Origin: a virus
Length of the DNA: 48,147 bases
Strand: one strand, 5' to 3'
Virus record (IMG/VR): IMGVR_UViG_3300017446_000002
Coordinates: 1 to 48,147 of that record
Positions 1 to 48,147 of this stretch are shown here, piece after piece. The number at the start of each line of letters is the position of its first letter. The stretch's first letter is position 1. Under the pieces are notes generated by a model. It worked only from the letters and a program-made list of their open reading frames with translations, was not told where the DNA came from and searched no databases. The translations under genes and the position numbers were made by a program.

Positions 1-123
1 AGATTGACCTTGACGGCCGCGCCCAATAGTCCGCTGTCATCGGCGAGTCGCTGGAATGCCGCCACCTTTTGAGCCAAGGTGGAGCCAGTGATGCGCTGCT
101 TCGAGATAGCGGTACGAATCGAG
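1..123. repeat. Terminal direct repeat, copy 1. It is identical to 48025-48147 and is most simply an assembly overlap of a circular or permuted genome with a 48024-bp unit.
   Basis: Base-by-base comparison of the first 123 nt (agattgaccttgacggcc...ggtacgaatcgag) with the last 123 nt found no mismatch. Confidence 0.9.
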
Positions 124-1913
124 TCGTCGGTGTACAAGAGGATGCACTTCTCGCTGGCGCGGGTGATCGCCGTATAGAGCCACTCGCGAAAGTGCATGGA
201 TTTGTGCGCGGAGTGAAGGACGATGACGACGACCGGCGATTCGCCACCCTGCATCTTGTGGCAAGTCACGACGTAGGCAGTCATCAGCGAGGCGACTTCG
301 GCAAGAGTCGCGAATGAGATATCGAAAGCGTGTGTGCCTTCGCCGAACGTCACCGTAACGATATGACTCGCTGGGCCACGATCCTTCTTCTCGGCCGCAG
401 CTGCCTTTCCAGCCTCTTGCGCGCCATACGTCGACATCATATCTTCGAGGGAAATCTCGACTTCTGGCTCGTCCGCGTTCTCTTCGCGCATGTATTCGTT
501 GACGGCTTCGACGGTCCCGAATCGACGGCGATCGCCAGCCCACGCTGCATTCTCGGTAATCGACTTAATGATTCCGGTCATGCCGTTGGTGACTCCGACC
601 TCGTGGTCATTCTTCGTCGCCATGACTTTATCGCCAACCGCAAACTTCTGCCGCTCGCGCCCCGCGTCAATGATGTAGCGAGGATTGTCCTTGTTGAAGA
701 TCATCGCGAACTCACGATTCAAGGGCAACTGCCCAAGAGCGTAGCCGCGAGACTCGTCATGCCCATTGATCGCGGTGATCGTGGTGTCACGAATCGGGTC
801 GTAGATGCCCTTCTCCCAAAGAGTCGGGAGGAACTTGCGGACCTGCTGCGATGCCTTGCCGACGAGTCCGTCGAACTTGACCATCTGGAAGTTGCCCTCG
901 GTCTGCGGCATCTGACCCTTGAGGACTCGCCATGCATTCTCGACGATAGGATTCGCAGTCTCCGAGCCATCCTCGTTCTTCTGGCGATGGACCTTAGTGA
1001 GTTCGAACGACGGCCACACGCCCATTGCGAATCCGAAGATCGAACGACCGTGAACCGGCGGAAGCTGATTGATGTCGCCGATCATGATGATCTTGCAGGT
1101 AGGCTTGAGCGCGAGTCGCAGCTGTTCCCACAAGTCAACGCCGACCATACCCGCTTCGTCGATCAAGATGACGTCCCAAGGCAGTTTATTCAGCGCGTTG
1201 TAAGTCGGCTCGAATCGCATTGTCTTGCGCATGGCTTGAAGTTCGTAATTGAACTTCTCTTCCCATACCGGCATGAACGCCAACAGACGGTGAATCGTCA
1301 TGATGTTGGGATGCCACGAACGCGGGAAGTTCTTCTTAATCATCTGAGTCGAACGACCTGTGAAACCGACCGCAGCAACGGACGGCACCCACTGTTCCTC
1401 ACCGTTCGATTCGCCATCCTCGCGGGCTTGCTGCTCGTCCATGTAATCGTCGTAAGCGGACGTGCCCTTTTCGGGAATCGCTTTGAAATAGGTCTTGAGG
1501 TCGACCATGTTCAGCGAGCCCATATCCATGACTCGATCGATGATCTTCTTAGTGCAAGTGGTTTTACCCGTACCTGCCGCGCCAGTGCCGCAAGCGCCGG
1601 GGTTATCATCTACGAACAAGCCGTTGACGATTCCGTCGATCATTGCGATCTGACTCGGATCGAACGGAAAGTCATCTGCGACGAGCCGATCCAGTTTCAG
1701 CTGCTCGCGAATGCCCGATTCAATCGCAGCTTCCTGCACGTCTGGCGAGGGGCGAGCGACGGTGGCATTCTCAAGCGAGTCCTGCTCTGCCAATGCCTCA
1801 CGCACGGCCAGCTTGATGATCTGCTCGTCTTCCTGCGAATCGGTCAAGATGCGCTGCGTCATAGCGGTGGAAGCGGCGGCCTTGCGAGCCATAAGCGTTT
1901 TGAAGTCAACCAT
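1..1913 (-). CDS. RecD/Dda-like SF1B DNA helicase, 5' part. The ORF leaves the left edge and continues in frame at 48024->47433, giving 834 aa in total.
   Basis: Manual reverse translation from ATG 1913 gives MVDFKTLMARK... Helicase motifs seen: Walker A GAAGTGKTT, motif II ILIDEAGMV, motif III GDINQLPPV, VHRQ, motif V TCHKMQGGE and motif VI LYTAITRA. There is no stop before base 1. The codon phase matches track ORF 47433..48101 across the 123-bp overlap. Confidence 0.9.
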   Translation of the reverse strand, partial: MVDFKTLMARKAAASTAMTQRILTDSQEDEQIIKLAVREALAEQDSLENATVARPSPDVQEAAIESGIREQLKLDRLVADDFPFDPSQIAMIDGIVNGLFVDDNPGACGTGAAGTGKTTCTKKIIDRVMDMGSLNMVDLKTYFKAIPEKGTSAYDDYMDEQQAREDGESNGEEQWVPSVAAVGFTGRSTQMIKKNFPRSWHPNIMTIHRLLAFMPVWEEKFNYELQAMRKTMRFEPTYNALNKLPWDVILIDEAGMVGVDLWEQLRLALKPTCKIIMIGDINQLPPVHGRSIFGFAMGVWPSFELTKVHRQKNEDGSETANPIVENAWRVLKGQMPQTEGNFQMVKFDGLVGKASQQVRKFLPTLWEKGIYDPIRDTTITAINGHDESRGYALGQLPLNREFAMIFNKDNPRYIIDAGRERQKFAVGDKVMATKNDHEVGVTNGMTGIIKSITENAAWAGDRRRFGTVEAVNEYMREENADEPEVEISLEDMMSTYGAQEAGKAAAAEKKDRGPASHIVTVTFGEGTHAFDISFATLAEVASLMTAYVVTCHKMQGGESPVVVIVLHSAHKSMHFREWLYTAITRASEKCILLYTDDSIRTAISKQRITGSTLAQKVAAFQRLADDSGLLGAAVKVN

Positions 1914-1919
1914 GACTCG

Positions 1920-2837
1920 TTATCCTTTGCGGAGGAACGCGGGGGCGCGAGTAACGCCGACCGGCTTGATTGTGGGCTTAGGCTGAATCGCCTTGATGAA
2001 GGTCGGGGTCTTGGAGGGAGTCGCGGCTTTAGCCTCTACCTCTTCCGGTCCAAAAGTCGCATCCAGTTCACGATTCGAGGCGTCGTTTTCAGCTTCTGCC
2101 AAAACCGCGTCGAACAGGTTTGCATACTCGGAAGTCTTCTCTTCCTTGACTCGCTTTGCAGCCTTAGTCTTGGATTCGGGCTTGGCTTCCATGAACGTCG
2201 CGAAGAATGCGGGCTTGGCAAGCGTGTTGCCCTTGAGCCAGCGAGTCTGATCGGCTTCGAGCTTCTGATTCCGGTCGTAAACCTTGATGCAAGCGCGATA
2301 CCATTTCTCAAAGACTTCGGCCGACTTTTCACCAAAGAGGATCATGTCTTCGATTCGCAGATCGATCGTCTGGCGAGTCAGATTCATCTTGGCGTCAATC
2401 TCGATAAGCATGAAATGCAAACCGGAGACGAACTCGGAGTCCTTATTCGATTCGAGATACTGGTAGAGCTTGATTCGCGAATGCAGATCGTTCAGGCGGC
2501 GAGCCAACGGCAGTTTGTAAAAGTCGTTTGGCTGGAACAGACGATTCAGGAGATAGGCGAGCGTCTCAACCGGGCGCTTGTTCTGCATATCCGTCAACGA
2601 GTCGGTACGCATGAGGTTCCAAGCGACGGAAGGACGCATCGAAGCCAAAGTCCGAATCATCAGATCGTCGGCGGCTTCTTCGATGTCGACGGTTTCGTCA
2701 AGGATCGATTCAATCTCGTCCTGATACATGCGGCCGATTGGCTTGCCGGTGAACTGGCAATAGAGCGTCATCGGATTCATGTTCATGTTGTCTTGCATGA
2801 AGGTGACGACGTTGGAGAGGTACGATTCGTTAGTCAT
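1920..2837 (-). CDS. Hypothetical early protein (305 aa) with a K/A/P/E-rich C-terminal tail ending in the FtsZ-CTP-like motif APAFLRKG.
   Basis: Track ORF 1920..3278 was trimmed to ATG 2837 (MTNESYLSNVV...) because the upstream part overlaps the next gene. An AGGAAC SD-like element lies upstream. The last ~100 aa look disordered and carry KPAFFATF, TPTFIKA and a terminal PAFLRKG. Confidence 0.7.
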   Translation of the reverse strand: MTNESYLSNVVTFMQDNMNMNPMTLYCQFTGKPIGRMYQDEIESILDETVDIEEAADDLMIRTLASMRPSVAWNLMRTDSLTDMQNKRPVETLAYLLNRLFQPNDFYKLPLARRLNDLHSRIKLYQYLESNKDSEFVSGLHFMLIEIDAKMNLTRQTIDLRIEDMILFGEKSAEVFEKWYRACIKVYDRNQKLEADQTRWLKGNTLAKPAFFATFMEAKPESKTKAAKRVKEEKTSEYANLFDAVLAEAENDASNRELDATFGPEEVEAKAATPSKTPTFIKAIQPKPTIKPVGVTRAPAFLRKG

Positions 2838-2868
2838 GGCGAGGGTTCCTAATGGAAGGGCCAAAATG

Positions 2869-3600
2869 TTACTTGCGGCGGAGGAAAGAGGGTGCAGCGA
2901 ATCCGGCTGGAACGTGCGGCTTGGCGGCGAGCGGATAGGGCAAAGGCTGATTCTGTGCCTTGTTGGCGTCAACCAATTCGAGGATTCGTTCCTGCACCTT
3001 AGCCGGGGTGCGAACGCGGAACAACATGCCGGTGAGAAAGTCGGGGAGCGATTCGCACTTAGTCCACTTGACGTGATTCTGAAAGAGCTTGTCGGCGGCG
3101 TAATAGCACTGGTACGAATCGATCGGGCCATAGATCGACTTGCAATCTTCCGGCATACAAACGGCGAACTCCGTGTGGTTGAACGCCATATCAGTGAGTC
3201 GACGATCAAGGACCAAAGCGCGCGATTCGTCACGAGTCCACATGCGCTCGCAGCCAGCCAGCTTGCAAGCCGCCGCATAGAAACCCAACGCGACGTTGTA
3301 AGTCTTGTGAGTCTTCTGGAAGCGGCGATGATATTCGGCCAGCAATGCTTCGAGGTGAAGAGTCAACCAAACGAAATTGGCCTTCGACTCGCGCACCCAA
3401 ATGTTGCAGGGATGATTCGCGTGCGTCGGCTTATAGAGGTTTGGCGCATACTGTTCAGGCAATACGGCCATGAATCCGGGGTCAAGATGGCAAGCCGTCG
3501 AAAGCATTTGTGCCGACTCAAGAATCATCTTGATGACGTGGCGATCGTGCTGGAATCGTGCGGCTTCGCGTGGATCGTTAGACAGTGCAAATATGTTCAT
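2869..3600 (-). CDS. Conserved hypothetical protein (243 aa) ending in the FtsZ-CTP-like motif APSFLRRK.
   Basis: Track ORF 2869..3864 was trimmed to ATG 3600 (MNIFALSNDPREAARFQHDRHVIKMILESAQMLSTA...) with GGAG upstream. It contains a Cys/His-bearing HANHPCNIW segment. The N-terminus resembles a family I have seen in phage and giant-virus genomes but cannot name. Confidence 0.7.
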   Translation of the reverse strand: MNIFALSNDPREAARFQHDRHVIKMILESAQMLSTACHLDPGFMAVLPEQYAPNLYKPTHANHPCNIWVRESKANFVWLTLHLEALLAEYHRRFQKTHKTYNVALGFYAAACKLAGCERMWTRDESRALVLDRRLTDMAFNHTEFAVCMPEDCKSIYGPIDSYQCYYAADKLFQNHVKWTKCESLPDFLTGMLFRVRTPAKVQERILELVDANKAQNQPLPYPLAAKPHVPAGFAAPSFLRRK

Positions 3601-3770
3601 GCGACGCACTCCACGTTGACTGACTCGACATCGGCGGAGGTATAGCCAAACGCGCGGACCATTCCTTCGACTCCCTGCATCATAATGCGAAAGGTGGAAT
3701 TGCGGTCCACGTAAACCTGCTGATGGCCATCGTTGAACTTGATTGTGACTCGGTATGGTTGGTATGTCAT
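3597..3770 (-). CDS. Small hypothetical protein (57 aa).
   Basis: Manual translation gives MTYQPYRVTIKFNDGHQQVYVDRNSTFRIMMQGVEGMVRAFGYTSADVESVNVECVA. An AAGGAAC SD lies upstream. Its TGA stop overlaps the ATG of the downstream gene (ATGA). It falls below the track's 60-aa cutoff. Confidence 0.5.
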   Translation of the reverse strand: MTYQPYRVTIKFNDGHQQVYVDRNSTFRIMMQGVEGMVRAFGYTSADVESVNVECVA

Positions 3771-3836
3771 TGATTCGGTTCCTTACTGCTCGGAGGGAAT
3801 CAACCTCGAAAACACCGGAAAAGTCCCGGTCCGCCC

Positions 3837-3864
3837 ACAATACACATTCCGGTAAACTTGTCAA
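3837..3864 (-). promoter_or_regulatory. Sigma70-like promoter candidate on the minus strand (TTGACA-16 nt-TATTGT).
   Basis: The reverse complement reads cTTGACAagtttaccggaatgtgTATTGTgggcgg. It is followed by the hairpin ACCGGgacttttCCGGT and then GTTTTC (about 3808-3830). It sits in the gap between genes 3901..4020 and 3597..3770. Confidence 0.45.
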
Positions 3865-3900
3865 GTGTTTTCTTCGGAGTCGGTGAATTATCTCATCGAT

Positions 3901-4020
3901 TCAGTGAGTCCTCCAATACCACGCAATGCAGCCGATTACGAGCCAACACAAAAGTGTGACGGGCAGACTGATGATTCCGCCGCGGACAGGGCCATCGGTT
4001 CGTTTGTTCTTATGCAACAT
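3901..4020 (-). CDS. Possible small membrane protein (39 aa).
   Basis: This is the ATG 4020 sub-ORF of track ORF 3901..4167, reading MLHKNKRTDGPVRGGIISLPVTLLCWLVIGCIAWYWRTH. It has one hydrophobic helix and starts 1 nt after the stop of the upstream gene. Confidence 0.35.
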   Translation of the reverse strand: MLHKNKRTDGPVRGGIISLPVTLLCWLVIGCIAWYWRTH

Positions 4021-4021
4021 A

Positions 4022-4486
4022 TTAGCGACTCTTCTTCTTGGCTGCGGACAGCGATTGAGGGTATTGCGACTCGTAGTAGTTCCACAAGCGATTATATTCC
4101 TCCGGGCTGGACTCGAAGTTCGATTGGCTTGTGTGCAGGTACGTGAGTCGCTTCCAGCCTTCCTCATTTCGCCACGGGTCCAAGGCCATAGCGGCTATCT
4201 GTGCCTCTTCCTCTTCCGTAGCCGGTCTGACTCCTGCCATCATCTGCGCGTAGGCTGGCATATGTTTGAAGTCTTCCATCGGATCGTCTTTGTTCGACTC
4301 GAATGGCTTGTCGCTGACTCGCAGGTTGATCTGCAACGCGCCGCTGGAGTCCTTCTGAATCTTCTGACTCATGCACCACAGCAGGAACTCGTGAGCCATC
4401 TTCTGTAGTGAGCCCTCAAGCAACGGCACCTCCGCGATTCCGGTTGCGATTACCTTGCCGTATAACTGTCGATTCTTAATGTCCAT
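4022..4486 (-). CDS. Hypothetical early protein (154 aa).
   Basis: Track ORF starting at ATG 4486 (MDIKNRQLYGK...). It is tightly packed with its neighbours. No motif was recognised. Confidence 0.65.
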   Translation of the reverse strand: MDIKNRQLYGKVIATGIAEVPLLEGSLQKMAHEFLLWCMSQKIQKDSSGALQINLRVSDKPFESNKDDPMEDFKHMPAYAQMMAGVRPATEEEEAQIAAMALDPWRNEEGWKRLTYLHTSQSNFESSPEEYNRLWNYYESQYPQSLSAAKKKSR

Positions 4487-4489
4487 GAT

Positions 4490-4753
4490 TCAGTCCACCA
4501 TCTTAGAGTAGTCGAGTTCCCCAAACAGCGAATCAAGCGTTGCTTGCTCCGTCTTCGATTCCCCTCCGAGCCACTGTTCACGTTCTTCCGGTGAGCGAAA
4601 GACTGCAAATTCGATACGGTTGGCGAGAGTCTGACTCAACCAATAATTCATAATGGCGGCGAGGCAAACCCGCATGTCACCTTCTGCGACGGCTGATTCG
4701 TTTGGCTTGCCGACATTCTTCATCGCGACATAACGAATCGTTGTTGCTTTCAT
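4490..4753 (-). CDS. Hypothetical early protein (87 aa), the first gene of the minus-strand arm.
   Basis: Track ORF starting at ATG 4753 (MKATTIRYVAMKN...). It lies immediately downstream of the divergent intergenic region. Confidence 0.6.
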   Translation of the reverse strand: MKATTIRYVAMKNVGKPNESAVAEGDMRVCLAAIMNYWLSQTLANRIEFAVFRSPEEREQWLGGESKTEQATLDSLFGELDYSKMVD

Positions 4754-5479
4754 GAGGGGATATCCTGTTGTTTTGGGGAATCAAGAGATTAGACCGCGAT
4801 GCGGGCCAGTTAGAAGGTAGCACAAGGTTTGATGTAATGTTGTGTAAAGTTTTATTTTTATACATATTTCATATCGTACTCATATTGTATTTCATCTTCC
4901 AGACTTTCCAGCGTGAATCCCTGCACCCTCCCGGCTACCCATTGCACAGTCGCATCCTGCGAGTCGCTGCGGGTAGAGTCGGTAGATTATGAGAGGTGTG
5001 TTAGGGGGGTTCAAAAAATTCTCACTAAATACTCGAACCCAGGAATCAGGTACAATGGATATGCGCAGGAATCGTCACAACCTAGAGCGAATCATGGGAA
5101 CCGAATGCGTAACTGGCTGACGGGGAGCGGGAGAGTCGGCTTGAAACTCTGGAAGATGAAATATTAAATGAAATACGGTGTAAAGTATGAATCAAAAGAC
5201 TCGTTTGTGTAATCGGTGCTGCGAGTCTTAGCCGATCGGTCGCCGTGAGCCGAATCACGCAACAATCTAACTGTTCCACGCAACGAATCAATTGTTCCAC
5301 GACTCGGCGACTCGGTTCATCGCAGGAATCACTCGGTTCGTCGCACTTTGACTCAATTTGTCCAGGCATCGCTTGATCCCATCCGGGTTTTGCCTCATTG
5401 AGTCGTTACGGCTTCTAGCCAACACGCACACACGCACATCACGACGCACCCGCCCGCGCAGATCAAGGAGTCTCACCCA
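4754..5479. promoter_or_regulatory. Divergent non-coding control region (726 bp) between the two transcription arms. It is a candidate for early promoters, operators and the origin.
   Basis: Genes leave in opposite directions at 4753 (-) and 5480 (+). An AT-rich block at about 4838-4900 carries short repeats (catatt, atttcat). GCAGGAATC/CAGGAATC occurs 3 times, and there is a phased direct-repeat array at 5264-5339. The only ORFs here are weak ones. Confidence 0.6.
5264..5339. repeat. Iteron- or operator-like direct repeats with 21-bp phasing.
   Basis: TGTTCCACG occurs at 5272 and 5293, inside AATCTAACTGTTCCACG and AATCAATTGTTCCACG. GACTCGG occurs at 5301 and 5309. ACTCGGTTC occurs at 5310 and 5331. 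Both main pairs are spaced 21 bp apart. Confidence 0.55.
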
Positions 5480-5779
5480 ATGTTCCCAAGCATGACTGGA
5501 TCGGACCGACTAGAGGCAGCCCGCAACGCGGCAGTTGCAGCATGGATCAAACTGAATCCTTTGCCCTTGATCCCCAACGCTAAGGACATCGCAGCAATCG
5601 AATCGCTCGCGTCTGACATCGTACCTTATTCGCACACCTTCCGGGTTCATGGTTCGACTGTTTCGGTTCAGATCATCGCCAATGATGACGGTTGCGTGAA
5701 TCAAGGCCATACGCTCGCGGAGGCTTGGACCGAGTACGATTCCGCCCGTAACGAATACTACTTTTATTGGGAGTCCTAA
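5480..5779 (+). CDS. Hypothetical protein (99 aa).
   Basis: Track ORF starting at ATG 5480, with a strong AAGGAG SD 8 nt upstream. Confidence 0.7.
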   Translation: MFPSMTGSDRLEAARNAAVAAWIKLNPLPLIPNAKDIAAIESLASDIVPYSHTFRVHGSTVSVQIIANDDGCVNQGHTLAEAWTEYDSARNEYYFYWES

Positions 5780-5781: not shown

Positions 5782-5931
5782 ATGGTTCTAGTTTCAATCG
5801 TCGGCTTTACCCTTTGGCTTGGACTCGTGGTAATAGCTGAATGTGTCCTCCCTCGCGTCCGTCGCGTTGGTGGCCTAATCTTTTTTCGGTTTGGTCGGTT
5901 CGGCGGATCGTTTTATATCTCCGGACGTTGA
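5782..5931 (+). CDS. Possible small membrane protein (49 aa).
   Basis: Manual translation gives MVLVSIVGFTLWLGLVVIAECVLPRVRRVGGLIFFRFGRFGGSFYISGR. A GGGAG SD lies upstream. It starts 3 nt after the previous stop and has a hydrophobic N-terminal helix. Confidence 0.45.
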   Translation: MVLVSIVGFTLWLGLVVIAECVLPRVRRVGGLIFFRFGRFGGSFYISGR

Positions 5932-6012
5932 TCCAATAGGCGTTGACAGTCACGCTAAGTTTTGAGACTGTAGCAACAGGCCAGATGGCCGCACACACAA
6001 AGGAAACGAATC

Positions 6013-6984: not shown

Positions 6985-7003
6985 CAGCACCGCGACAGAC
7001 TCA

Positions 7004-7038
7004 CCCCGGCTTGCAATCACGCGAGCCGGGGTTTTTTT
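7004..7038 (+). terminator. Rho-independent terminator.
   Basis: The stem CCCCGGCT (7004-7011) pairs with AGCCGGGG (7024-7031) and is followed by T7 (7032-7038). Confidence 0.85.
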
Positions 7039-7070
7039 GCGTCCACGATTCGTCGTTAACCATACCCTTA

Positions 7071-7101
7071 AAAAAATTTTTTTCTTTGTTCCAAAGAAAA
7101 A
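7071..7101. repeat. AT-only palindrome or hairpin.
   Basis: aaaaaaatttttttctttg ttc caaagaaaaa. The arms tttttctttg and caaagaaaaa are a perfect inverted repeat. An A7T7 palindrome immediately precedes it. Confidence 0.7.
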
Positions 7102-7109
7102 GTTGATTG

Positions 7110-7193
7110 ATGAGTGCCTAGTCGGCACAGAGTCATTGGACTAATATAGCAGTTTGTTTGGACGCTTCGCTTTGAAATGAGTGCTAGTCGCAC
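7110..7193 (+). repeat. Two copies of a small hairpin element, ATGAGTGC(C)TAGTCG(G)CAC.
   Basis: Copy 1 is at 7110-7128 (atgagtgcctagtcggcac) and copy 2 at 7177-7193 (atgagtgctagtcgcac). Each has a GTGC(C)/(G)GCAC stem around a conserved TAGTC loop. Confidence 0.7.
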
Positions 7194-7450
7194 GATAGGC
7201 TGCCACGAACATGAGTCTATATATAGTAACTGTAACCGGAGGGGTAGTGATTCAGGCAACCTCACCCCGAGCATACCCACCATCTAAGGCCCACCCTCTC
7301 GGATTCGTGTAAGCGACTGTTCAGTAGGCGACGTTGAATCCTTGGGGTGATCTTTGAATCAACAACACTAAACATTACTCGCGGTACTGTTGAGTCAGAG
7401 AAAGGCGGGGGGCTATCCCCCCATTCGTTTCGTGTCCCGATGGGCTTAAT

Positions 7451-7502
7451 ATGAGTCACACATAGGGCGCCCAAAAATTCAAATTAGCCCCCATGAGTCA
7501 CA
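7451..7502 (+). repeat. Two copies of ATGAGTCACA spaced 42 bp apart.
   Basis: The copies are at 7451-7460 and 7493-7502. A related ATGAGTCTAT lies at 7211 and TTGAGTCAG at about 7390. A G6/C6 hairpin at 7407-7422 lies between them. Confidence 0.6.
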
Positions 7503-7590
7503 AAGCCGGGGACAATAACCGCAGTTTACCGAATGAGGCGTTGACAGAGGCGAGTCGATCGGGCAGAGTCAGCAATGAAAGGACTCCGAA

Positions 7591-13306: not shown

Positions 13307-14518
13307 TTGAAGGGAATCGACGACGTGATCCAGGGTATCTTTGCATCCAACCAGGGAATCGTGGGGGATCGCGTCGGCGACTTCTCCTCGGTCATCCTCC
13401 GAATGAATCCGACGGGCACCGCGCTGATGCTGGCCCTTTCGAGCGGCATGAACAAGTCGGGCGCTTCCGACACCGTGTTCACGTGGTTCGAGGACTCGCA
13501 TCAGTCCGGTCGTTCGACCGCAACGGGCGGCGGCACCACCACGGCTCTGACCGTCGACGAGGGCTCGTTCTACATCCCCGGCACCGTGCTGATGTGCGAG
13601 GAATCGGGTGAGCACATGCTCGTCACCGCGGTCGCAGGCAATGCGATCACCGTGATTCGCGGGCTCGCCGGCACCAACGTCGTCGCGATCAGCAACGGGA
13701 ATCATCTCCAGCAGATCGGCAACGCGCACGAGGAAGCTTCGGGTATGCCCGTTGCTGTGACTCAGCAGGGTGCGCCGCGGATGAACTATGTTCAGATTTT
13801 CCGCAACGGCTGGGCAATCTCCGGCACCGCCAAGGCTGTGAGTTACCGGACGGGCAACAAGCTCGCTCGCAACAAGCAGGACTGCGCGACTTATCACGCC
13901 GAGGATATGGAGCGGGCGTTCCTCTGGGGCCGCAAGCACATCGGGAATCTGAACGGCAAGCAGTTCCGCATGACGGACGGAGTCGTGGCCCAGATCGAGA
14001 ACTACGGCGGCACGGTCGAATCGGCTGCGACCGGCGGGACTCCTGGCGACTACTCGCGGCTCGACTTCGAGGACTTCATCCGGCGTCTGTTCGCGATCGG
14101 AATCAAGGGCCAGCCCAACGAGCGAATCGCACTCGGCGGCGATCAGGTCTTGCAGGTCCTCAACCAGATGACCATGCTCGACTCGACCTACAACATCTCG
14201 GCCGGCGAATCGAAGGTCGGCATCGCCGTGACGAAGATCATGACTCCGTTCGGCTCGCTCTCGCTCATGACGCACCCGCTCATGAACGAGAACCCGATGT
14301 GGCAGAAGGAACTCTACTGCATGCATCCGGGCGCGATTCGGAAGCGCGTGCTGCGCGAAACCTTCAACGAGGGCTACGACAGCAACGGCAATCGAATCCA
14401 GGGCAAGGACGCCGACGAGGGCGTGATGACCACGGAAGCCGGCATGGAAGTCGGCGGCGCCAAGACGATGGGGATTCTTCGGAACGTCCGTCGCGCGGTG
14501 AAGTCGGTCGCAGAATAA
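13307..14518 (+). CDS. Major capsid protein (about 400 aa; the start is uncertain, either TTG 13307 or GTG 13325).
   Basis: It follows the scaffold gene and is followed by a strong terminator, and its size is typical of HK97-fold coat proteins. The N-terminus reads ...IQGIFASNQGIVGDRVGDF...TWFEDS. GTG 13325 has a GAAGGGA SD 10 nt upstream. Confidence 0.75.
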   Translation: MKGIDDVIQGIFASNQGIVGDRVGDFSSVILRMNPTGTALMLALSSGMNKSGASDTVFTWFEDSHQSGRSTATGGGTTTALTVDEGSFYIPGTVLMCEESGEHMLVTAVAGNAITVIRGLAGTNVVAISNGNHLQQIGNAHEEASGMPVAVTQQGAPRMNYVQIFRNGWAISGTAKAVSYRTGNKLARNKQDCATYHAEDMERAFLWGRKHIGNLNGKQFRMTDGVVAQIENYGGTVESAATGGTPGDYSRLDFEDFIRRLFAIGIKGQPNERIALGGDQVLQVLNQMTMLDSTYNISAGESKVGIAVTKIMTPFGSLSLMTHPLMNENPMWQKELYCMHPGAIRKRVLRETFNEGYDSNGNRIQGKDADEGVMTTEAGMEVGGAKTMGILRNVRRAVKSVAE

Positions 14519-42135: not shown

Positions 42136-42139
42136 TGAG

Positions 42140-42361
42140 TTATCCTTCGTTGAGTCGGTAGCGTGCGTCTAAGATGTATGTGTCTGGCTCGTAATGTTTT
42201 ACAACCCTAGCATGAAGTAACCTATATGTCAATCCCTTATATCTGATTCGATATTTTATTTCTGCGCCAGCCCCGATCAAAAAGCGAACTTCTCGTGCGA
42301 TTCGATGATCCTTGGGCTTGCCTCTGTAAGTGTTGGACTTACGACCACGACTCACCGGCAT
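42140..42361 (-). CDS. Small basic protein (73 aa) in a locally AT-rich segment.
   Basis: Track ORF whose start overlaps the upstream stop (TGATG). It is visibly lower in GC than its neighbours. Confidence 0.5.
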   Translation of the reverse strand: MPVSRGRKSNTYRGKPKDHRIAREVRFLIGAGAEIKYRIRYKGLTYRLLHARVVKHYEPDTYILDARYRLNEG

Positions 42362-42738
42362 CAGGTATAGACCACCTTGCCGGGCTCGACGCTCCAGTAT
42401 TCTTCGGCGGGCTCGGGGAATCCGAGTCGTGCGATTTCGAGTCGGACCTGCTGCTTAATCTCGTCTTTGAGGAACTCACCGGGGTCGACGAGTCCGTAGC
42501 GTACCGCCGTGCCGCGAGCAATGTTTGCGTAAGGCTTGTCCATCCAGCGAGCGTCATCATAGATGATCTGGTCGCGCTCGGCATTCGTACCAGCCTTCTC
42601 CAAGAGCTTCTGGCACAAAAGGTAGTAGTGGAAAAGCGCATGAGTCCGCTTGTCGAGAGTCAGGAATCCCTTGGGCAGGACCTGATCCTCGTAGTACGGG
42701 AACTCGTACGTCATCTTGATTCCGGCGTGCTTAGTCAT
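42361..42738 (-). CDS. Hypothetical protein (125 aa).
   Basis: Track ORF starting at ATG 42738. Confidence 0.6.
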   Translation of the reverse strand: MTKHAGIKMTYEFPYYEDQVLPKGFLTLDKRTHALFHYYLLCQKLLEKAGTNAERDQIIYDDARWMDKPYANIARGTAVRYGLVDPGEFLKDEIKQQVRLEIARLGFPEPAEEYWSVEPGKVVYT

Positions 42739-42741
42739 GAC

Positions 42742-42960
42742 TCAATACACCTTGTTGATGATGGTGTGCAGCAGGTTGTACTGCTTGCGACTCGGCGACC
42801 ACATCGGGCGATCCTCGTTACGGAAGAGCATGTTCGCAACGAACTCGCGCTCGTAGTCCGTAAAGACACCGGCATCGATTTGATTCGCCTTTGCGATAAG
42901 GTTGTCCCAAAGCCGGGCATTGCCAAGCTCGGACAAATCCATGCGACCGTTATGCGGCAT
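42742..42960 (-). CDS. Hypothetical protein (about 72 aa; start uncertain).
   Basis: Track ORF 42742..42984 starts at TTG. I prefer ATG 42960 (MPHNGRMDLSELG...), although it has no clear SD. Confidence 0.45.
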   Translation of the reverse strand: MPHNGRMDLSELGNARLWDNLIAKANQIDAGVFTDYEREFVANMLFRNEDRPMWSPSRKQYNLLHTIINKVY

Positions 42961-43204
42961 TGGCCCGAATCGTCTGCAAGGCAACGGTCAGCGCGCGGAG
43001 CTGAACCCACGTGATGCACTCGGCCTCCGTGTTGAACTGCTCGCTCACATAGGCGCGATCGGAAAGCTGCACGCTAGGGGTGTCACGCCACGAGTCGTGT
43101 GCTATCCACAAGCCACCCGTCGTCCGCGGCTTCTGCATCCGCCACTGGGCAATCTCGTGCTTGTAAGCGGCGAGCAGTTGAATCGCTTCCTCTGATATGT
43201 TCAT
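42950..43204 (-). CDS. Hypothetical protein (84 aa).
   Basis: Track ORF whose ATG overlaps the upstream stop (TGATG). Confidence 0.55.
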   Translation of the reverse strand: MNISEEAIQLLAAYKHEIAQWRMQKPRTTGGLWIAHDSWRDTPSVQLSDRAYVSEQFNTEAECITWVQLRALTVALQTIRANAA

Positions 43205-43830
43205 CAGATGACCCCCTTGATCTTGTGCGGCGAGTCCAGCCCGCGCTTGTCGGTGAGCGCCGAGACCAAGTCGTTGGTGTCACGAGCCGAGTCGTGATAC
43301 TCCACGAAGTAGTCGATCGACGGGGCCTTGTGATCCGTGGACTGCGCGAGTCCCAAGCAAAGCCGGTGAATGTTGTCGAGCTTGGTCGTCCTCGACTTGC
43401 GGAACTTGTCCGTCTGCGACTCACGCTTGCGCAACACAGCCTCGGAAGCGCAGTTGATAAGGTGCAGAACCGTGACGTGTGCATCGGTGTGATTGCACAG
43501 CTGAAGAATGAACGACTGGTTGCCGAGTCGATCGCCCTCCATGATGAAGTCCCGGTTGGGATTCCGCTTGATGAAGTCGAGCGCGTGAGCCTGACAGGCC
43601 ATCGACATGCGATCGGTGCCGGGGAACGGATGCTTCGAGTCATCGTACCTACCGAGGACGATGCTGGGCCGATAGTTGGAGTAGTGCATCGGCAAATACT
43701 TCGTAGTATTGTCGAAGCGCCACGGATTCGTGACCTCCATCAGATGCCGCATCAACGTGGACTTCCCCGTCGCAGGCATCCCAATAATAATAGTGACCGT
43801 TTGGACTCGGTGTCCACGACGCTCTGTCAC
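43204..43830 (-). CDS. P-loop NTPase or nucleotide-kinase-like protein (208 aa).
   Basis: Track ORF 43204..43860 was trimmed to GTG 43830, which has an AAGGAGAG SD 8 nt upstream. Walker A is IIIGMPATGKSTL. Confidence 0.55.
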   Translation of the reverse strand: MTERRGHRVQTVTIIIGMPATGKSTLMRHLMEVTNPWRFDNTTKYLPMHYSNYRPSIVLGRYDDSKHPFPGTDRMSMACQAHALDFIKRNPNRDFIMEGDRLGNQSFILQLCNHTDAHVTVLHLINCASEAVLRKRESQTDKFRKSRTTKLDNIHRLCLGLAQSTDHKAPSIDYFVEYHDSARDTNDLVSALTDKRGLDSPHKIKGVI

Positions 43831-43902
43831 GTGCCTCTCTCCTTCTCTCTGTACGCTCAAGATTCTTGAGGTAGTGGTAATACTTATTCGTGGGGTCGCC
43901 CG

Positions 43903-44937
43903 CTATCCAAACGGGTTTATCGTGGTGACTACCCACGGCTCCCACGATTCCGGCTTGGCCTCGTCCTTGCCCATCGTGAACCAGTCGTTCAGGACCTTTT
44001 GGTCGCGACTCATACAAGGCTCCAAGTAGCGACATGGACGGTTGTAGAACATGCACCCGCCCGACGTCCTTGGAAAGAAATCCATTTCGGCGTAGCGTTG
44101 CATCTGCTGAAGTTGCATGACTCTTGAGAGTAGCCATTCTTGGATATCCGACTGGCGTTTCAGGAACGAGTACAGCTTGACTCGCGGCTCGATGATGTCG
44201 ATCTTGGCGTCGTAGTACAAGACCTCGAAAGAATCCTGTGGCTTGCCGGCGATATGGTCGACGACGATTCCGTACGGAACCTGCTGCGTGTCGAACTTAT
44301 ACTTTGCCGTTCGATCGTTGATGTTGTCGCGGTGAGTCTTGATGTCCGTCGTCCGGTACATGTCCGTCAGGAGGTTGCGCATGATCGCATCCATGTAGCC
44401 GACGAAACTGACTCCGCACCCGGTCGGGTACTTGGGCGTGGGCGGAAGCTTGATCCCCTCGAATCGAATCTCGAACGGGACTTCGATCGCGGGCACAACG
44501 ATTCCACCTTCGGGGTAAAGCAAGGCATTGCCCTGCTCGTACCGCAGATGATTCTCGGCCTTCTCATCCTGTGTAAGCGGACGTTTAATCTCGGCGATCT
44601 TGTAGTCACCCATCGAATGACTCACCATCATCTCTTCGAGCGTGGCAAGGCTGGCTTCGCAGGAGCGGAAATCGTTCTGCTCCATGAACTCCAGCTTGAA
44701 GGGATACTTCTCAAGGAACGCCCAGATGGCTTTCTCTTCGCTCTGAGTCACCAGATAGTTCTGATACCCAGCGTGAAGAGCCGTGCCGACATCGGCCGCG
44801 AACGCATCATCCCGCGCGCGGCCGTGATCGTAAAGCTTGTCCAGCTCGAACTTCCGCGGACACGACTCGAAGACATTGCCAGACGAGTACGACATGCGGA
44901 GGTACTGTTCCTCGACATAGTCTTGAGTCGTGATCAT
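43903..44937 (-). CDS. PD-(D/E)XK exonuclease, Cas4/RecB-like, with a 4-Cys cluster (344 aa).
   Basis: One N-terminal Cys (FESCPRKF) and three C-terminal Cys (GGCMFYNRPCRYLEPC). Nuclease core candidates are GYMDAI and TTDIKTH. The start was chosen at ATG 44937 (MITTQDYVEEQ...). Confidence 0.65.
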   Translation of the reverse strand: MITTQDYVEEQYLRMSYSSGNVFESCPRKFELDKLYDHGRARDDAFAADVGTALHAGYQNYLVTQSEEKAIWAFLEKYPFKLEFMEQNDFRSCEASLATLEEMMVSHSMGDYKIAEIKRPLTQDEKAENHLRYEQGNALLYPEGGIVVPAIEVPFEIRFEGIKLPPTPKYPTGCGVSFVGYMDAIMRNLLTDMYRTTDIKTHRDNINDRTAKYKFDTQQVPYGIVVDHIAGKPQDSFEVLYYDAKIDIIEPRVKLYSFLKRQSDIQEWLLSRVMQLQQMQRYAEMDFFPRTSGGCMFYNRPCRYLEPCMSRDQKVLNDWFTMGKDEAKPESWEPWVVTTINPFG

Positions 44938-45022
44938 GAGCCGAACCACACAAGCAAGAGGATAACCGGCCACATCAGGACGATGTAGCGTTGAATCGGG
45001 ATGGTCCCGCGGAGCCACTGAA

Positions 45023-45784
45023 TCATGAGAAGTCCATCCCTTCCAACGCTTCCAGCACCGCCAGATCATTGATTTCGGTCTTCTTGGCCTTCGGCGAACG
45101 CTTGGCCTTCGACTCTTCCTTCTTGATCCGAGCCAGACCCATCGACTCGCGCATACCGCGAACCATCGTGTGCATGTCGGAAGGCGCGATCAGCTTGCGA
45201 TACTCCGGATGATTCTGGAGTTCGATCATGATGCCGCGAACGACTCCGCCCAGCAAGTCCGGCTCGTGGATGACGCGGTAGATCGAGTCTAGCGAATCGA
45301 CGAATGCTTTACCGGCCGGTTCCAACTCCGGGGGTAAGTCGCGAGCTGGCCCCGTAGCAGGAATCTCGTCCTGAAAGCGGGACTTGTGAGTCGGCTGCTC
45401 GCTGTTGAGCAAGCGGTCGAGGTCGCCCATCGGTTCGGCTTTGCCGGTAACGGCTTGACTCGGAGTGGCCACCGGAGTCTTGGGCTCTGGCGTAAGTACC
45501 GATACGCGCTTCTCTTGAGTCGGCGCGCTTGACCCGATCCGATTTTTGAGGAACCCAAGCCCAGCGGCCGGGACAACCGCCGGAACTCCTCCGGATTCCT
45601 TTGCAGGTGCAGCCACCTCCGCAGGTTTGTTTGCAGCCTTGAGGAAGGCGAGTCCGGTCTTAGGCGGCGAAACCGATTCGCTACCAGTTTCCACTTGAGC
45701 GGCAGGTGCGCTGGGCGTTTCCGTTGGGACATCGGGCGATTCCTTCTTGGCCTTTTGGGCCGCGAGTAGAGCTTGTAGACTCAT
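45023..45784 (-). CDS. Hypothetical protein (253 aa) with a disordered P/A-rich N-terminal half carrying two GLxFLK motifs.
   Basis: Track ORF. The motifs are KTGLAFLKAANK and AAGLGFLKNRIG. The N-terminus is MSLQALLAAQKAKK. Confidence 0.7.
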   Translation of the reverse strand: MSLQALLAAQKAKKESPDVPTETPSAPAAQVETGSESVSPPKTGLAFLKAANKPAEVAAPAKESGGVPAVVPAAGLGFLKNRIGSSAPTQEKRVSVLTPEPKTPVATPSQAVTGKAEPMGDLDRLLNSEQPTHKSRFQDEIPATGPARDLPPELEPAGKAFVDSLDSIYRVIHEPDLLGGVVRGIMIELQNHPEYRKLIAPSDMHTMVRGMRESMGLARIKKEESKAKRSPKAKKTEINDLAVLEALEGMDFS

Positions 45785-46107
45785 GAGCGGAGCAAGTCCT
45801 CTAGCATTTCGGCGTGTTCATGCGACTCGGAACGTGTGGACCAAATGACCACAGCGTCGAATCGATGCCCATCTTCCGTGTGTGGGTGGACGGTGTGATG
45901 CACCTTGAAGTGCTGAATCTTTTTGTTCTGGTTCCGAAGCTTCTTCCGGACCCGCGACATCATGACTCGGATGCGCTGGACGATATTCTCGCCTTCGGTC
46001 TTCGGGCACAGGAACAAGACTCGTTCCCCCTGTTTGACCAATGGCATGATTCGCGCCATCAGCGCCCGCGTGTCATCTATGGGCAGGTCGTCGATTCGTA
46101 TTGCCAT
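45781..46107 (-). CDS. Hypothetical protein (108 aa).
   Basis: Track ORF with a strong AAGGAGG SD 7 nt upstream of ATG 46107. Confidence 0.65.
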   Translation of the reverse strand: MAIRIDDLPIDDTRALMARIMPLVKQGERVLFLCPKTEGENIVQRIRVMMSRVRKKLRNQNKKIQHFKVHHTVHPHTEDGHRFDAVVIWSTRSESHEHAEMLEDLLRS

Positions 46108-46126
46108 CGTGAGTCCTCCTTTCTAC

Positions 46127-46161
46127 GTAATAAGTGTGACACATTACATAGCCACTGTCAA
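46127..46161 (-). promoter_or_regulatory. Imperfect palindrome plus a TTGACA hexamer upstream of gene 45781..46107.
   Basis: GTAATAAGTGTGACACATTAC at 46127-46147 has outer arms GTAAT/ATTAC and inner arms GTGT/ACAC. A minus-strand TTGACA lies at 46156-46161. I found no good -10 at canonical spacing. Confidence 0.3.
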
Positions 46162-46433
46162 TAGATACATTTCGAGTCGTCAAGATAGTACCACGGATAA
46201 CCGCCTTCTGCACTCTTGAGTCCCCAAATCATGAAGCCGTGATGCTCGAACGAATCGACTCGCTTACCGCAGAGGATCATGAGATCAACGGCTATTGGAT
46301 TATTGGTGAGTCCCTCTTGATCGAGGATCGCCAGAAAGTCCCGAGCGCAGGTCCAGCACAAAGCCGCACCCACGCTCGTTACCTTGATCGGCAGTTTGCG
46401 TTCACCGCAAGAACCACAGACCGATTGAGTCAT
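46158..46433 (-). CDS. Small zinc-ribbon-like protein (91 aa).
   Basis: Track ORF with CGSCG...CWTC (CxxC-x17-CxxC) near the N-terminus. Confidence 0.55.
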   Translation of the reverse strand: MTQSVCGSCGERKLPIKVTSVGAALCWTCARDFLAILDQEGLTNNPIAVDLMILCGKRVDSFEHHGFMIWGLKSAEGGYPWYYLDDSKCIY

Positions 46434-47078
46434 TTACTTGAGCCACTCGAAGTGCGGGCCGTCGATGAAGTCAGGGCCGGGATGGCGACTCACGTAGGCG
46501 TCGACTTCTGCCTTATATGCGGTCGAATCACCACCGAAATCGGCGAGAGTGCGATCCCAAGCACCGCCCCATCGAATCCGGTTAGCGACACCCAATTCCG
46601 TCGCTGCGGAATCCATAGCCAGTGCGATCCGGTAACAGCCGTTCCAATCCCAAGTCGGTTTGCCGCCGATATATGGAACGAGGTCGACGGCGAGTCCATC
46701 AAGATGTTTGGACGCCATCGTCTTTGAGGTGCCGTTACGAACATGCTGCTGCTGCTCCTTATAGGTGCGAATCCCGTCGAACACCACGAAGTCGATGTCG
46801 CAGAGTTCGAGCGCACGCCGAGTCACCTTGACCAGCGTTTCGTTGACGCCGACCAGCTCCTTCTCGGAACCCTTGCCGAATCGGAAGCCGCTGACCTTGG
46901 GACCGGCCGATGCGGTATTCTGCGGAAGCGGCGCGGGCGACTTAGTGTTGGTCAGCGGAAGTTCAGGCGCGATTCCCGGTGCGGCGAACACCAAGATATT
47001 GTGGATGATCTGATCCATCTGGAGTCGATTGAACGACGTGCCGAGCAGATAGTCTTCGAGTTCTGCGTGAGTCTTCAT
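46434..47078 (-). CDS. Endolysin, a peptidase M15 (VanY / L-Ala-D-Glu peptidase-like) (214 aa).
   Basis: Zn-ligand pattern SKHLDGLAVDL and RWGGAWD...DGPHFEW. It is adjacent to two small membrane-protein genes. Confidence 0.75.
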   Translation of the reverse strand: MKTHAELEDYLLGTSFNRLQMDQIIHNILVFAAPGIAPELPLTNTKSPAPLPQNTASAGPKVSGFRFGKGSEKELVGVNETLVKVTRRALELCDIDFVVFDGIRTYKEQQQHVRNGTSKTMASKHLDGLAVDLVPYIGGKPTWDWNGCYRIALAMDSAATELGVANRIRWGGAWDRTLADFGGDSTAYKAEVDAYVSRHPGPDFIDGPHFEWLK

Positions 47079-47335
47079 GGTATCATGTATCCTGCTTTAG
47101 TGATGACGGGCTGCGGGGTGCCTGATTCACAGGCTTCTAACTTGGCTTCAAGCGCCGCCACTCGCTTGTCCAAGTATTCGATACGCTTCTGGCGATGATC
47201 GCCCACCAGATTCGTATAAGTGCGGACGCCGTTGACTGCGATGGCAATCACTGCAAGAATCGCGATGAAGAATATTCGCATACTCAACCGATGTTCGACG
47301 TCGTGCAATTTCTGCACCATAGCCATGTCTACCAT
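47075..47335 (-). CDS. Lysis-associated membrane protein, either an Rz-like i-spanin or a holin (86 aa).
   Basis: A single TM segment, IFFIAILAVIAIAV, is followed by a coiled-coil-like segment, RIEYLDKRVAALEAKLEA. Its stop overlaps the endolysin start (ATGA). Confidence 0.55.
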   Translation of the reverse strand: MVDMAMVQKLHDVEHRLSMRIFFIAILAVIAIAVNGVRTYTNLVGDHRQKRIEYLDKRVAALEAKLEACESGTPQPVITKAGYMIP

Positions 47336-47436
47336 AAGTGAATCGCTCCTGTCATGAAGAGGTAGAGGAATCGGATCACGACCATCGGAATGATGATGGC
47401 CGCGAATCCAATGAGACAGCCAACGGGGCTATTCAT
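47329..47436 (-). CDS. Possible small holin-like membrane protein (35 aa).
   Basis: Manual translation gives MNSPVGCLIGFAAIIIPMVVIRFLYLFMTGAIHLW. Its ATG overlaps the helicase stop (ATGA), and its end overlaps the next start by 7 nt. Confidence 0.4.
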   Translation of the reverse strand: MNSPVGCLIGFAAIIIPMVVIRFLYLFMTGAIHLW

Positions 47437-48147
47437 TTCTTGTTCTGCGCCAAGAGCCAAGCCAGCGACTTCTTAGCAGGAGTCGCAACAGGCTTCTCAC
47501 CTTTGCTCGGAGTCTCAAGCGGCTTCTGGTCCGGATTCATTCCGCGGATCATCTGCAACATCGATTCCTTCTTGGGGGCGGGGAGGCGAAGGATGGTGGG
47601 GTCGGGGCGCTTCGCTTGGTAATGAGTCACAACCGGACCAGACGCCACGACCGCGGTATTCGCGGCTTTGACCAGCCTTTCAGCAATAAGCGGGGCGGGT
47701 TCAGGCGCTTTGCCGACCAAAGACGCCATTGCCTGTTCCAAGCCAGCTTTCCGATTCTCCGCCGCCGTCGGCATCGGCTGCTTTGCGAACAGCTTGGAGA
47801 GACCCTTGAGTACGATAGCCCCCTGCTCCGGACTCCCATGGTGGTGGTGATGCTCATGCTTTATCTCGACCTTGTTGATGTTGATCTGAGTCGCGGACTT
47901 GAGGAAGGAGGGGCGTTGGGGTGGAGGTGCAATCGGCTCCGCCTTCGATTCCTCCTCACTGTCCAACAAACGATCAAGTGCGGAATCGGCCCGCTCAACG
48001 ATAGCCGTGTTGCCGCCCCACCGCAGATTGACCTTGACGGCCGCGCCCAATAGTCCGCTGTCATCGGCGAGTCGCTGGAATGCCGCCACCTTTTGAGCCA
48101 AGGTGGAGCCAGTGATGCGCTGCTTCGAGATAGCGGTACGAATCGAG
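47433..48147 (-). CDS. 3' part of the same RecD/Dda-like helicase gene. It encodes a non-helicase C-terminal extension; 48025-48147 duplicates 1-123.
   Basis: Track ORF 47433..48101 (…QKVAAFQRLADDSGLLGAAVKVNLRWGG...) is the in-frame continuation of the ORF that leaves the window at base 1. It contains PSFLKSA and HEHHHHH and ends SLAWLLAQNKK. Confidence 0.85.
   Translation of the reverse strand, partial: SIRTAISKQRITGSTLAQKVAAFQRLADDSGLLGAAVKVNLRWGGNTAIVERADSALDRLLDSEEESKAEPIAPPPQRPSFLKSATQININKVEIKHEHHHHHGSPEQGAIVLKGLSKLFAKQPMPTAAENRKAGLEQAMASLVGKAPEPAPLIAERLVKAANTAVVASGPVVTHYQAKRPDPTILRLPAPKKESMLQMIRGMNPDQKPLETPSKGEKPVATPAKKSLAWLLAQNKK
48025..48147. repeat. Terminal direct repeat, copy 2, identical to 1-123.
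   Basis: Direct comparison of the two ends found them identical. Confidence 0.9.

Follow-up and report, generated by a model that had tools for sequence, protein, structure and literature searches.

A quasi-regular, genome-wide array of GANTC sites in an uncultivated podophage and its relatives

In Alphaproteobacteria, the protein GcrA reads GANTC sites that have been methylated by CcrM. GANTC is the specificity of the CcrM/HinfI family of enzymes, and the word is under-represented in Caulobacter (PMC3973325) and depleted in pelagiphages (PMC9516812). The genome described here displays the opposite property. IMG/VR virus record IMGVR_UViG_3300017446_000002 is a DNA stretch of 48,147 nucleotides (termed the window, which refers to the whole stretch that was analyzed). 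It is a complete, circularly assembled genome of ~48.0 kb from an uncultivated podophage with an SU10-type capsid, and it is distantly related to Bruynoghevirus, Caulobacter phage Kuura and Polaromonas phage Tiera. GANTC sites occur along its entire length and form a quasi-regular array in which neighbors closer than about 23 bp are avoided.

An earlier sequence-only reading of the window had proposed a genome-wide excess of GANTC from hand counts in six blocks. Those counts are right to within one (9, 20, 13, 7, 9 and 10 were noted; the exact values are 9, 19, 13, 7, 9 and 9), and the excess is stronger than that reading had it. The window contains 827 sites (GAATC 237, GATTC 196, GACTC 216, GAGTC 178), of which 825 are in the unique 48,024-bp circle, a density of one per 58.2 bp. 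An order 0 Markov model predicts 180. GANTC is thus 4.6-fold above composition, and its four variants are individually enriched 3.3–6.1 times. Each full kb has 13–24 sites. The density is 21.5 sites/kb in non-coding DNA and 16.7 sites/kb in coding DNA, and non-coding regions are enriched 5–6-fold. As had been claimed from the letters alone, the excess is found in all codon phases, on both gene arms and in intergenic DNA, and both shuffles and codon-context tests show that codon usage is insufficient to account for it.

Markov models of order 1, 2 and 3 predict 310, 330 and 631 GANTC, respectively. The order 3 model is an unfair null because it is built from GANT and ANTC counts, which are inflated by the motif itself: 827 of the 1,216 GANT words (68%) have a C next. 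Shuffles of synonymous codons on the refined gene map give 364±10 sites, and synonymous shuffles that also preserve dinucleotides give 507±9. In both of these protein-preserving shuffles the four GANTC pentamers have the top four z-scores among the 1,024 pentamers (z between 11 and 22), and the next-highest pentamers are words that overlap GANTC. Words that differ from GANTC by one base are present at ordinary counts (GANTT 164, GANTG 138, GANTA 87, CANTC 158); the excess is therefore not a generic TCG/CGA bias. The sequence-only reading had held that a ratio close to 1 in high-order Markov or codon-preserving comparisons, or an equal enrichment of unrelated words containing TCG or CGA, would speak against its claim, and neither was found.

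These figures bear on the proposal that composition, codon usage or mutational bias gives rise to the excess as a by-product, or else that it reflects a GANUC signal at the RNA level. GA, TC, CGA and TCG are indeed over-represented, and the order 3 model comes closest to the observed count. The protein- and dinucleotide-preserving shuffles, however, reach merely 364–507 sites, the one-base variants are not enriched, and non-coding DNA is equally enriched. The excess of CGA and TCG is itself largely a consequence of the motif, since the arginine codon CGA is used in 51% of cases before F, L, I or V and in 5% elsewhere. A role in RNA would need neither a palindrome nor equal behavior on two oppositely transcribed arms. 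With the flat dipeptide controls and the under-dispersed, multimodal spacing described below, a by-product of this type is scarcely credible.

The use of CGA is one of several signs of selection. The glycine codon GGA is used in 42% of cases before F, L, I or V and in 9% elsewhere, and serine is encoded by TCN in 93% of cases after D or E, but in 71% elsewhere. The amino acid sequences are affected as well. There are 180 [DE]S dipeptides as compared with 104±9 in shuffled proteins (z = 8.2), and the reversed S[DE] control is 104 as compared with 102. [RG][FLIV] dipeptides number 560 versus 471 (z = 5.0), again with a flat reversed control. On the first, greedy gene map, about 48% of the synonymous GANTC positions permitted by the proteins were filled. 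Selection on the DNA itself thus holds GANTC at about one per 58 bp by way of context-dependent synonymous codons, amino acid choice and non-coding DNA.

The spacing of the sites is a feature that is absent from the sequence-only reading, and it is the most informative one. The coefficient of variation (CV) of nearest-neighbor spacing is 0.49, and in shuffles it is 0.84–1.14. The largest gap is 186 bp, versus 428–1,666 bp in shuffles. A GANTC is present in every 200-bp window and in 95% of 90-bp windows, and the variance/mean ratio of counts in 100–200-bp windows is 0.32–0.36. When ~7,000 words of 4–7 positions were scanned, GANTC was the sole word whose spacing CV fell below 0.7; this held for the window as well as for the distant relative L035.

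The histogram of spacings is multimodal and sharp-edged. Bands are found at 24–27, 33–36, 48–54, 57–61, 75–78 and 84–87 bp, and troughs at 29–30, 37–46, 56, 63–66 and 89–97 bp. The sharpness of the edges is seen, for example, in the pooled counts, which are 113 at 61 bp and have fallen to 47 at 63 bp. When compared with a gamma-renewal null of equal mean and CV, the histogram departs from it both in the window (p = 4e-18) and in 21 independent loci from related phages (p = 1e-132), and the high and low bins coincide between the window and these 21 loci. In the pooled data the observed/expected (o/e) pair density is 0.33 at lags of 5–22 bp, 0.86 at 24–27 bp, 0.44 at 29–30 bp, 1.38 at 48–54 bp, 1.43 at 57–61 bp and 0.69 at 63–66 bp. 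In addition, a minor abutting class of 43 pairs lies 5–12 bp apart, above a smooth gamma model of the spacings.

The spectrum shows a period of ~8.55–8.6 bp beneath an envelope of ~26 bp. In the window the Rayleigh power reaches 13.4 at 8.5 bp, against a null maximum of 7.3, and 35.4 at 25.7 bp, against a null maximum of 15.4. Helical phasing at 10.5 bp is absent from the window (Rayleigh power 0.1), the 3-nt phasing of spacings is weak, and the absolute positions of GANTC have no long-range periodicity. The 26-bp envelope returns in most groups of relatives. No second “filler” motif was found at the midpoints of the 48–62-bp intervals, which show merely a mild GC-rich tendency, and the composition around the sites shows no pattern beyond the 3-nt codon periodicity. 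The preferences in the flanks of GANTC are mild and palindromic, with A avoided at -1 and T at +1. The central base, taken as a proxy for orientation, was considered as a source of the spacing classes and was ruled out (p = 0.75). The spacing signal is equal on both gene arms.

Related loci were collected from IMG/VR by queries with the capsid protein, polymerase and helicase, together with homologue look-ups of two core proteins. This gave 30 loci that belong to the clade of the window, on contigs that reach ~50 kb, with major capsid protein identities from 81% down to 48% and a GC content of 48%–59%. The array, in both density and spacing, is present in 30 of the 30. In 28 of the relative loci the GANTC o/e is 2.75–4.94 (median 4.29) and the spacing CV is 0.47–0.75 (median 0.52). 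The more distant loci L034 and L035 also keep the array. Outgroups do not have it: the o/e is 0.31 in Kuura, 1.14 in Tiera and 0.51 in L016, with CVs of 0.84–1.06. Since the array is clade-wide and these outgroups are without it, the trait is natural, old and lineage-wide and not an artifact of a single assembly.

A further genome without the array is L033, an 11.7-kb Logan contig (SRR29078143) with 41% GC. It is about as distant as the array-bearing L035, and it shares with the window clade the helicase, TerL and both unannotated core protein families. The scan of ~7,000 words found no array of any other word in Kuura, Tiera, L016 or L033. It may be added that GCCGC/GCGGC is about 4-fold enriched in L033 yet clustered (CV 1.8), hence it forms no array.

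The individual sites turn over. In the closest relatives, 35%–43% of the window sites are GANTC at the codon-aligned position, as compared with 21%–32% for control words. GANTC pairs 5–22 bp apart occur at ~0.9 times baseline between aligned genomes, versus 0.33 times within a genome, and apart from exact coincidence the offsets between genomes are nearly unstructured. Thus the short-range exclusion is restricted to sites on one molecule. Exclusion within but not between genomes, combined with turnover, indicates that selection acts on the relative arrangement of sites in cis and not on fixed positions.

The sequence-only reading had argued that enrichment points to a positive function. This is strongly supported by the clade-wide conservation, by the reshaped codons and dipeptides, and by the avoidance of 6-bp palindromes in the same genome (see below). 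A function that would accommodate these properties is docking: GANTC would be the place on duplex DNA to which a two-fold-symmetric, GANTC-specific factor attaches. Such a factor would have to occupy or mark the whole chromosome in a packed and register-sensitive manner, with neighboring bound units that exclude or abut each other and a footprint of perhaps 24–26 bp. The array would then be a stoichiometric coat or self-mark, as opposed to a set of isolated regulatory or restriction sites. A symmetric reader of duplex DNA is suggested by the palindromic flank preferences, the irrelevance of the central base and the equal signal on both arms. The exclusion zone, the sharp preferred distances and the interaction in cis, which independent catalysis does not predict, argue for bound factors that interact with each other; regular spacing argues likewise against independently acting sites. 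Occupancy of the sites by protein, the footprint and the identity of the factor are deductions from the DNA sequence.

With respect to its identity, the factor may be supplied by the host, and the most likely one would be the alphaproteobacterial CcrM methyltransferase, with or without the reader GcrA. The phage DNA would in that case be a dense substrate, sink or mark for host CcrM, and the benefit might lie in attracting host machinery, in telling phage DNA from host DNA, or in protection. A docking array for a symmetric factor, with host CcrM/GcrA as the leading candidate, is the interpretation that we tentatively prefer; that the host supplies the factor is the weaker part of it. CcrM is placed first because no enzyme was found in the phage, the CcrM/HinfI family are known readers of the word, a host-conserved factor could sustain the trait across a deep clade, and the host may well be alphaproteobacterial.

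Pfam and PHROG scans of all called open reading frames (ORFs) detected no methyltransferase. The [DNS]PP[YFW] signature (motif IV of amino-methyltransferases) is absent from the real ORFs of the window and of its relatives, which bears out the failure of the sequence-only reading to find such a gene.

The evidence on the host comes from the endolysin. In a pattern-limited scan of genome contigs from species-representative genomes, its nearest bacterial relatives (38%–54% identity) were in two Brevundimonas, Sphingobium, Acidimangrovimonas and a metagenome-assembled genome of an unclassified member of the Pseudomonadota; four of the five are alphaproteobacterial. A search of bacterial genome contigs with the capsid protein gave no match. 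The support for an alphaproteobacterial host from these sequences is weak to moderate. The DNA that flanks the alphaproteobacterial endolysin relatives has a GANTC o/e of 0.40, and the phage is ~14 times denser in GANTC per kb than this sampled DNA.

Several observations weigh against the docking array and, in particular, against host CcrM as its reader. Comparably similar endolysins are present in the phage database from phages of beta- and gammaproteobacteria. Kuura, a phage of Caulobacter, depletes GANTC; thus CcrM hosts do not generally favor enrichment. Catalysis by a methyltransferase that then leaves its site would not of itself yield a spacing comb, and we know of no DNA-binding lattice with a constant of ~8.6 or 26 bp. 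The 8.6-bp fine structure is tentative: several groups of relatives show it weakly, and it is clear in one group and in the window. Finally, L033 covers 11.7 kb, and a phage-encoded determinant may lie outside the sampled part.

The last point is connected with a second explanation, that a phage-encoded GANTC-specific protein of unrecognized fold coats or marks the chromosome, with the array providing nucleation sites that are in register. The product could be a chromatin-like coat, or a signal of self-identity for the nuclease, replication or packaging machinery of the phage. Lattice-like spacing and exclusion in cis suit stoichiometric binding better than catalysis, and in this respect a phage protein fits the lattice better than CcrM. 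The trait is stable over a deep clade with 48%–59% GC. Many core genes have no known function, and the products of two of them (1920–2837 and 6013–6984) have confident AlphaFold2 (AF2) models with pLDDT values of 85–86 and no match in Foldseek searches of PDB and BFVD or in profile searches of PDB sequences. The dNMP-kinase-like and exonuclease genes suggest salvage from degraded host DNA, which would need discrimination between phage and host DNA, and there is a weak match to a ribbon-helix-helix protein at 8466–8696. On the other hand, no candidate has a detectable DNA-binding or enzymatic signature, and a compact 5-bp palindrome is typical of restriction-modification-type enzymes and of few other binders. 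The two best-conserved families were considered as sufficient determinants of the array and were dropped, since both are present in L033 without it. These genes thus do not suffice, and it may be the host that the trait follows; that the trait does not track these genes is also a reason for favoring a host-supplied factor. A phage-encoded coat or self-mark is a real possibility, nearly as likely as host CcrM, although we would not call it probable.

Both core proteins belong to large families known solely from contigs of this kind. The family of the 6013–6984 protein comprises 463 clusters at 50% identity, and each member that was checked is on a phage-like metagenome contig. The N-terminus of this protein is disordered, and its C-terminal tail (DDLTADLF) is acidic and SSB-like.

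The genome strongly avoids 6-bp palindromes. Relative to a maximal-order Markov expectation, the window is depleted to 0–0.3 times: CTGCAG is found 0 times (20 expected), GGATCC 0 times (8 expected), CTCGAG 3 times (23 expected) and TTCGAA 4 times (23 expected). CCWGG is also depleted in the window. Clade-wide (relatives L001–L031) the ratios for 6-bp palindromes are 0.15–0.5, with CTGCAG, GGATCC, CTCGAG and CCCGGG at 0.15–0.21. This is a signature of DNA exposed to type II restriction. A host endonuclease that cuts GANTC, and from which the phage has no protection, is on this evidence very improbable.

The avoidance of palindromes also argues against a general protective hypermodification, and thus bears on the proposal that GANTC is the target of a phage-directed, post-replicative hypermodification of thymine, adenine or guanine, whose dense and even coverage would shield the DNA from nucleases. 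A characterized phage T-dioxygenase does prefer NTC contexts (PMC13229309), and the window has a kinase3-like gene, a dNMP-kinase-like gene and a Pyr_excise/PHROG 624 gene (Table 1). The kinase3-like and Pyr_excise-like genes, however, are accessory, with detection limited to one to three relative contigs (one for the kinase3-like gene). The 5-HMUDK pathways of thymidine hypermodification use a 5-hmU source (dUMP hydroxymethylase or 5mYOX/TET-JBP), a DNA kinase and a transferase; of these families the scans gave the sub-threshold kinase3 match and no other. A role of the kinase-like and Pyr_excise/PHROG 624 genes in nucleotide salvage is possible. A source of hydroxymethyluracil was not found, as there is no thymidylate-synthase-like or TET/JBP protein among the called ORFs in the Pfam and PHROG scans, and these also gave no aGPT-Pplase, TGT/DpdA or Mom-like protein and no match for preQ0 synthesis or a TGT-like transglycosylase that would lead to 7-deazaguanine. 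The DNA is not broadly shielded from type II enzymes, and independent modification events predict no spacing comb. Hypermodification as the cause of the array is therefore improbable.

Sequence-specific nicking, comparable to the single-strand interruptions that T5 and LUZ24/tf-type phages carry at localized positions, is less probable still, and we consider it very unlikely. Such an origin is suggested by the distant relation to Bruynoghevirus, whose members LUZ24 and tf carry consensus-associated nicks, and by the fact that GAGTC is a known nickase site. But ~825 palindromic sites cut on both strands would fragment the genome, and there is neither strand bias nor unequal use among the four central bases. 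Exact matches to the LUZ24-type consensus TACTRTGMC are absent from the window, one-mismatch matches number 19, where 15±4 are expected by chance, and no nickase or HNH protein was found in the called ORFs. The sequence-only reading had listed four possible functions: a CcrM-type read-out or sink, target sites for base modification, nicking sites, and binding sites for a protein. The first and the last of these remain. Nicking at all sites is made unlikely by the fragmentation it would entail, and the palindrome avoidance, together with the absence of pathway genes from the scans, speaks against a broad protective hypermodification.

With the docking array retained as the preferred interpretation, the organization of the genome in which it is found can be described (Table 1). 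The final bases of the window (48025–48147) are an exact repeat of bases 1–123; this 123-bp terminal repeat indicates a circular assembly and a genome of ~48,024 bp. The Dda/RecD-like helicase ORF at 3–1913 (-) runs over the junction into the ORF called at 47433–48146 (-). Its C-terminal extension holds a run of histidines (HEHHHHH). The gene arms are taken from a coding-potential map, which replaced a greedy ORF map that was wrong on the left arm.

Recognizable genes on the + arm are those for the large terminase, portal, SU10-type major capsid protein, a fibritin/F5-8C tail fiber and an SLT-domain virion protein. The - arm has a family-A DNA polymerase, a DUF3987 primase and a Sak4-like ATPase, as well as a PD-(D/E)XK exonuclease, an Rv2179c-like exonuclease, a dNMP-kinase-like protein and an M15 peptidase. 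In the recognizable proteins the nearest cultured phages are 24%–32% identical; these are Bruynoghevirus (PaP2, 119X), Kuura, Tiera and EBPR podovirus 3. A megablast search with 22 kb of the window against the phage database gave no nucleotide-level match, and tRNA and Rfam searches of the window gave zero matches.

Two long ORFs were rejected on the basis of coding potential and tblastn identities to relatives. The 840-aa + ORF region of the sequence-only reading (330–2852) is a shadow of - strand genes, and the 392-aa - ORF at 5950–7128 is a shadow of a real gene on the opposite strand.

The divergent control region contains a 33-nt inverted repeat (4880–4912/5139–5171), which is 85% complementary, with its arms 226 nt apart and an AT-rich core between them. 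It also has tandem repeats spaced 21 bp apart at 5256–5300 and 5310–5345, and these repeats themselves contain GANTC. The repeats of the control region may represent mirrored early promoters and iteron- or operator-like elements.

Among the encoded proteins, the tail fiber (18855–20876, +) joins a fibritin C-terminal (foldon-like) segment with an F5/8 type C (discoidin) domain. Three proteins of the - arm (1920–2837, 2869–3600 and 47433–48146) share short basic-hydrophobic tails, which end in APAFLRKG, APSFLRRK and SLAWLLAQNKK. G(L/F)xFLK motifs that resemble these tails are also present in 45023–45694. The similar tails may be a shared docking peptide.

Table 1. Features of the window (positions 1 to 48,147) with coordinates, strand and basis.
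Feature	Position	Strand	Remarks
Genome-wide GANTC array	1..48147	.	827 sites; mean spacing 58.2 bp, SD 28.7, largest gap 186 bp
Abutting double GANTC sites, example GAATCGAGTC	116..125	.	one of 43 pairs 5–12 bp apart
Site-free gap, joint longest (186 bp)	5822..6008	.	intergenic, just upstream of gene 6013-6984
Site-free gap, joint longest (186 bp)	13759..13945	.	within major capsid gene
Divergent control region, non-coding, between - and + arms	4754..5491	.	19 GANTC, 2.9 expected
Second large non-coding region	6985..7590	.	upstream of putative small terminase gene; 14 GANTC, 2.4 expected
Circular assembly overlap	48025..48147	.	duplicates two GANTC sites; Dda/RecD-like helicase gene spans junction
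Minus-strand gene arm	34219-48146, continuing 3-4753	-	coding-potential map
+ strand gene arm	5492-34164	+	coding-potential map
Clade-core unannotated protein	1920-2837	-	AF2 pLDDT 85.9
Clade-core unannotated protein	6013-6984	+	AF2 pLDDT 85.1
Pyr_excise/PHROG 624 protein	2869-3600	-	Pfam/PHROG
Ribbon-helix-helix match, weak	8466-8696		E 3.4e-4
dNMP-kinase-like protein	36336-36911	-	PHROG 139
P-loop nucleotide kinase3-like protein	43204-43779	-	Pfam E 1.7e-5, 24.9 bits vs cutoff 27 (sub-threshold)

In full-text literature searches the reports on GANTC in phages described depletion alone, and neither enrichment nor a regular spacing of any short word in a phage genome was encountered. For one word, this clade does the reverse of the usual purging of palindromes, and it pays for this in codon choice and altered protein sequence. 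The array points to a protein-DNA interaction along the entire chromosome, of which the literature searches gave no description in a phage. It is conceivable, and we put this forward tentatively, that the array is a near-crystalline positioning code, a “phage chromatin” or self-barcode with an 8.6/26-bp register, by which the clade inverts site avoidance and possibly exploits CcrM/GcrA. If a host CcrM/GcrA-type module reads the sites, this would be a new form of viral exploitation of a cell-cycle epigenetic system. If a phage protein reads them, it would represent a new kind of DNA coat, or of self/non-self mark, whose position is set by sequence. Other genomes can be screened in a simple manner for comparable systems by the CV of word spacing.

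A comparison with known systems shows both likenesses and differences. With the CcrM/HinfI systems the array shares the identical word and the free central base; recognition of the duplex would likewise be symmetric, and the host may well be alphaproteobacterial. It differs in that described alphaproteobacterial genomes and phages under-represent GANTC, whereas here it is enriched; also, an element-encoded methyltransferase was not found in this phage, and CcrM sites are not known to be regularly spaced. Restriction-site avoidance is likewise a word-frequency signature that results from DNA-recognizing enzymes of the host, and this phage displays it for 6-bp palindromes, but for GANTC the sign is opposite and the sites are evenly spread.

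The nicks of T5, LUZ24 and tf, Mom, the DpdA “GA” and the 5mYOX “NTC” are also phage DNA features set by short consensus words. The consensus, copy number and required enzymes of these nick and hypermodification systems were not found here, and for neither type of system do we know of target-word enrichment or even spacing in a phage genome.

SeqA, a filament-forming protein that reads pairs of hemimethylated GATC, is similar in that a methylatable palindrome of 4–5 bp is involved and the spacing matters to an oligomeric reader, which here is presumed. The spacing recognized by SeqA, however, follows the helical repeat, whereas the array has values of ~8.6 and 26 bp, no 10.5-bp signal and a far higher density. 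The DNA uptake sequences and uptake signal sequences (DUS/USS), Chi, and the FtsK-orienting polar sequences and architecture imparting sequences (KOPS/AIMS) are comparable as short words over-represented throughout a replicon, whose copies turn over and which presumably mark “self” to a protein machine. Those words are 7–12 nt long, asymmetric and often strand-skewed, with one copy per ~1–5 kb. The GANTC array, in contrast, consists of a 5-bp palindrome that is ~20–100 times denser, without orientation and regularly spaced.

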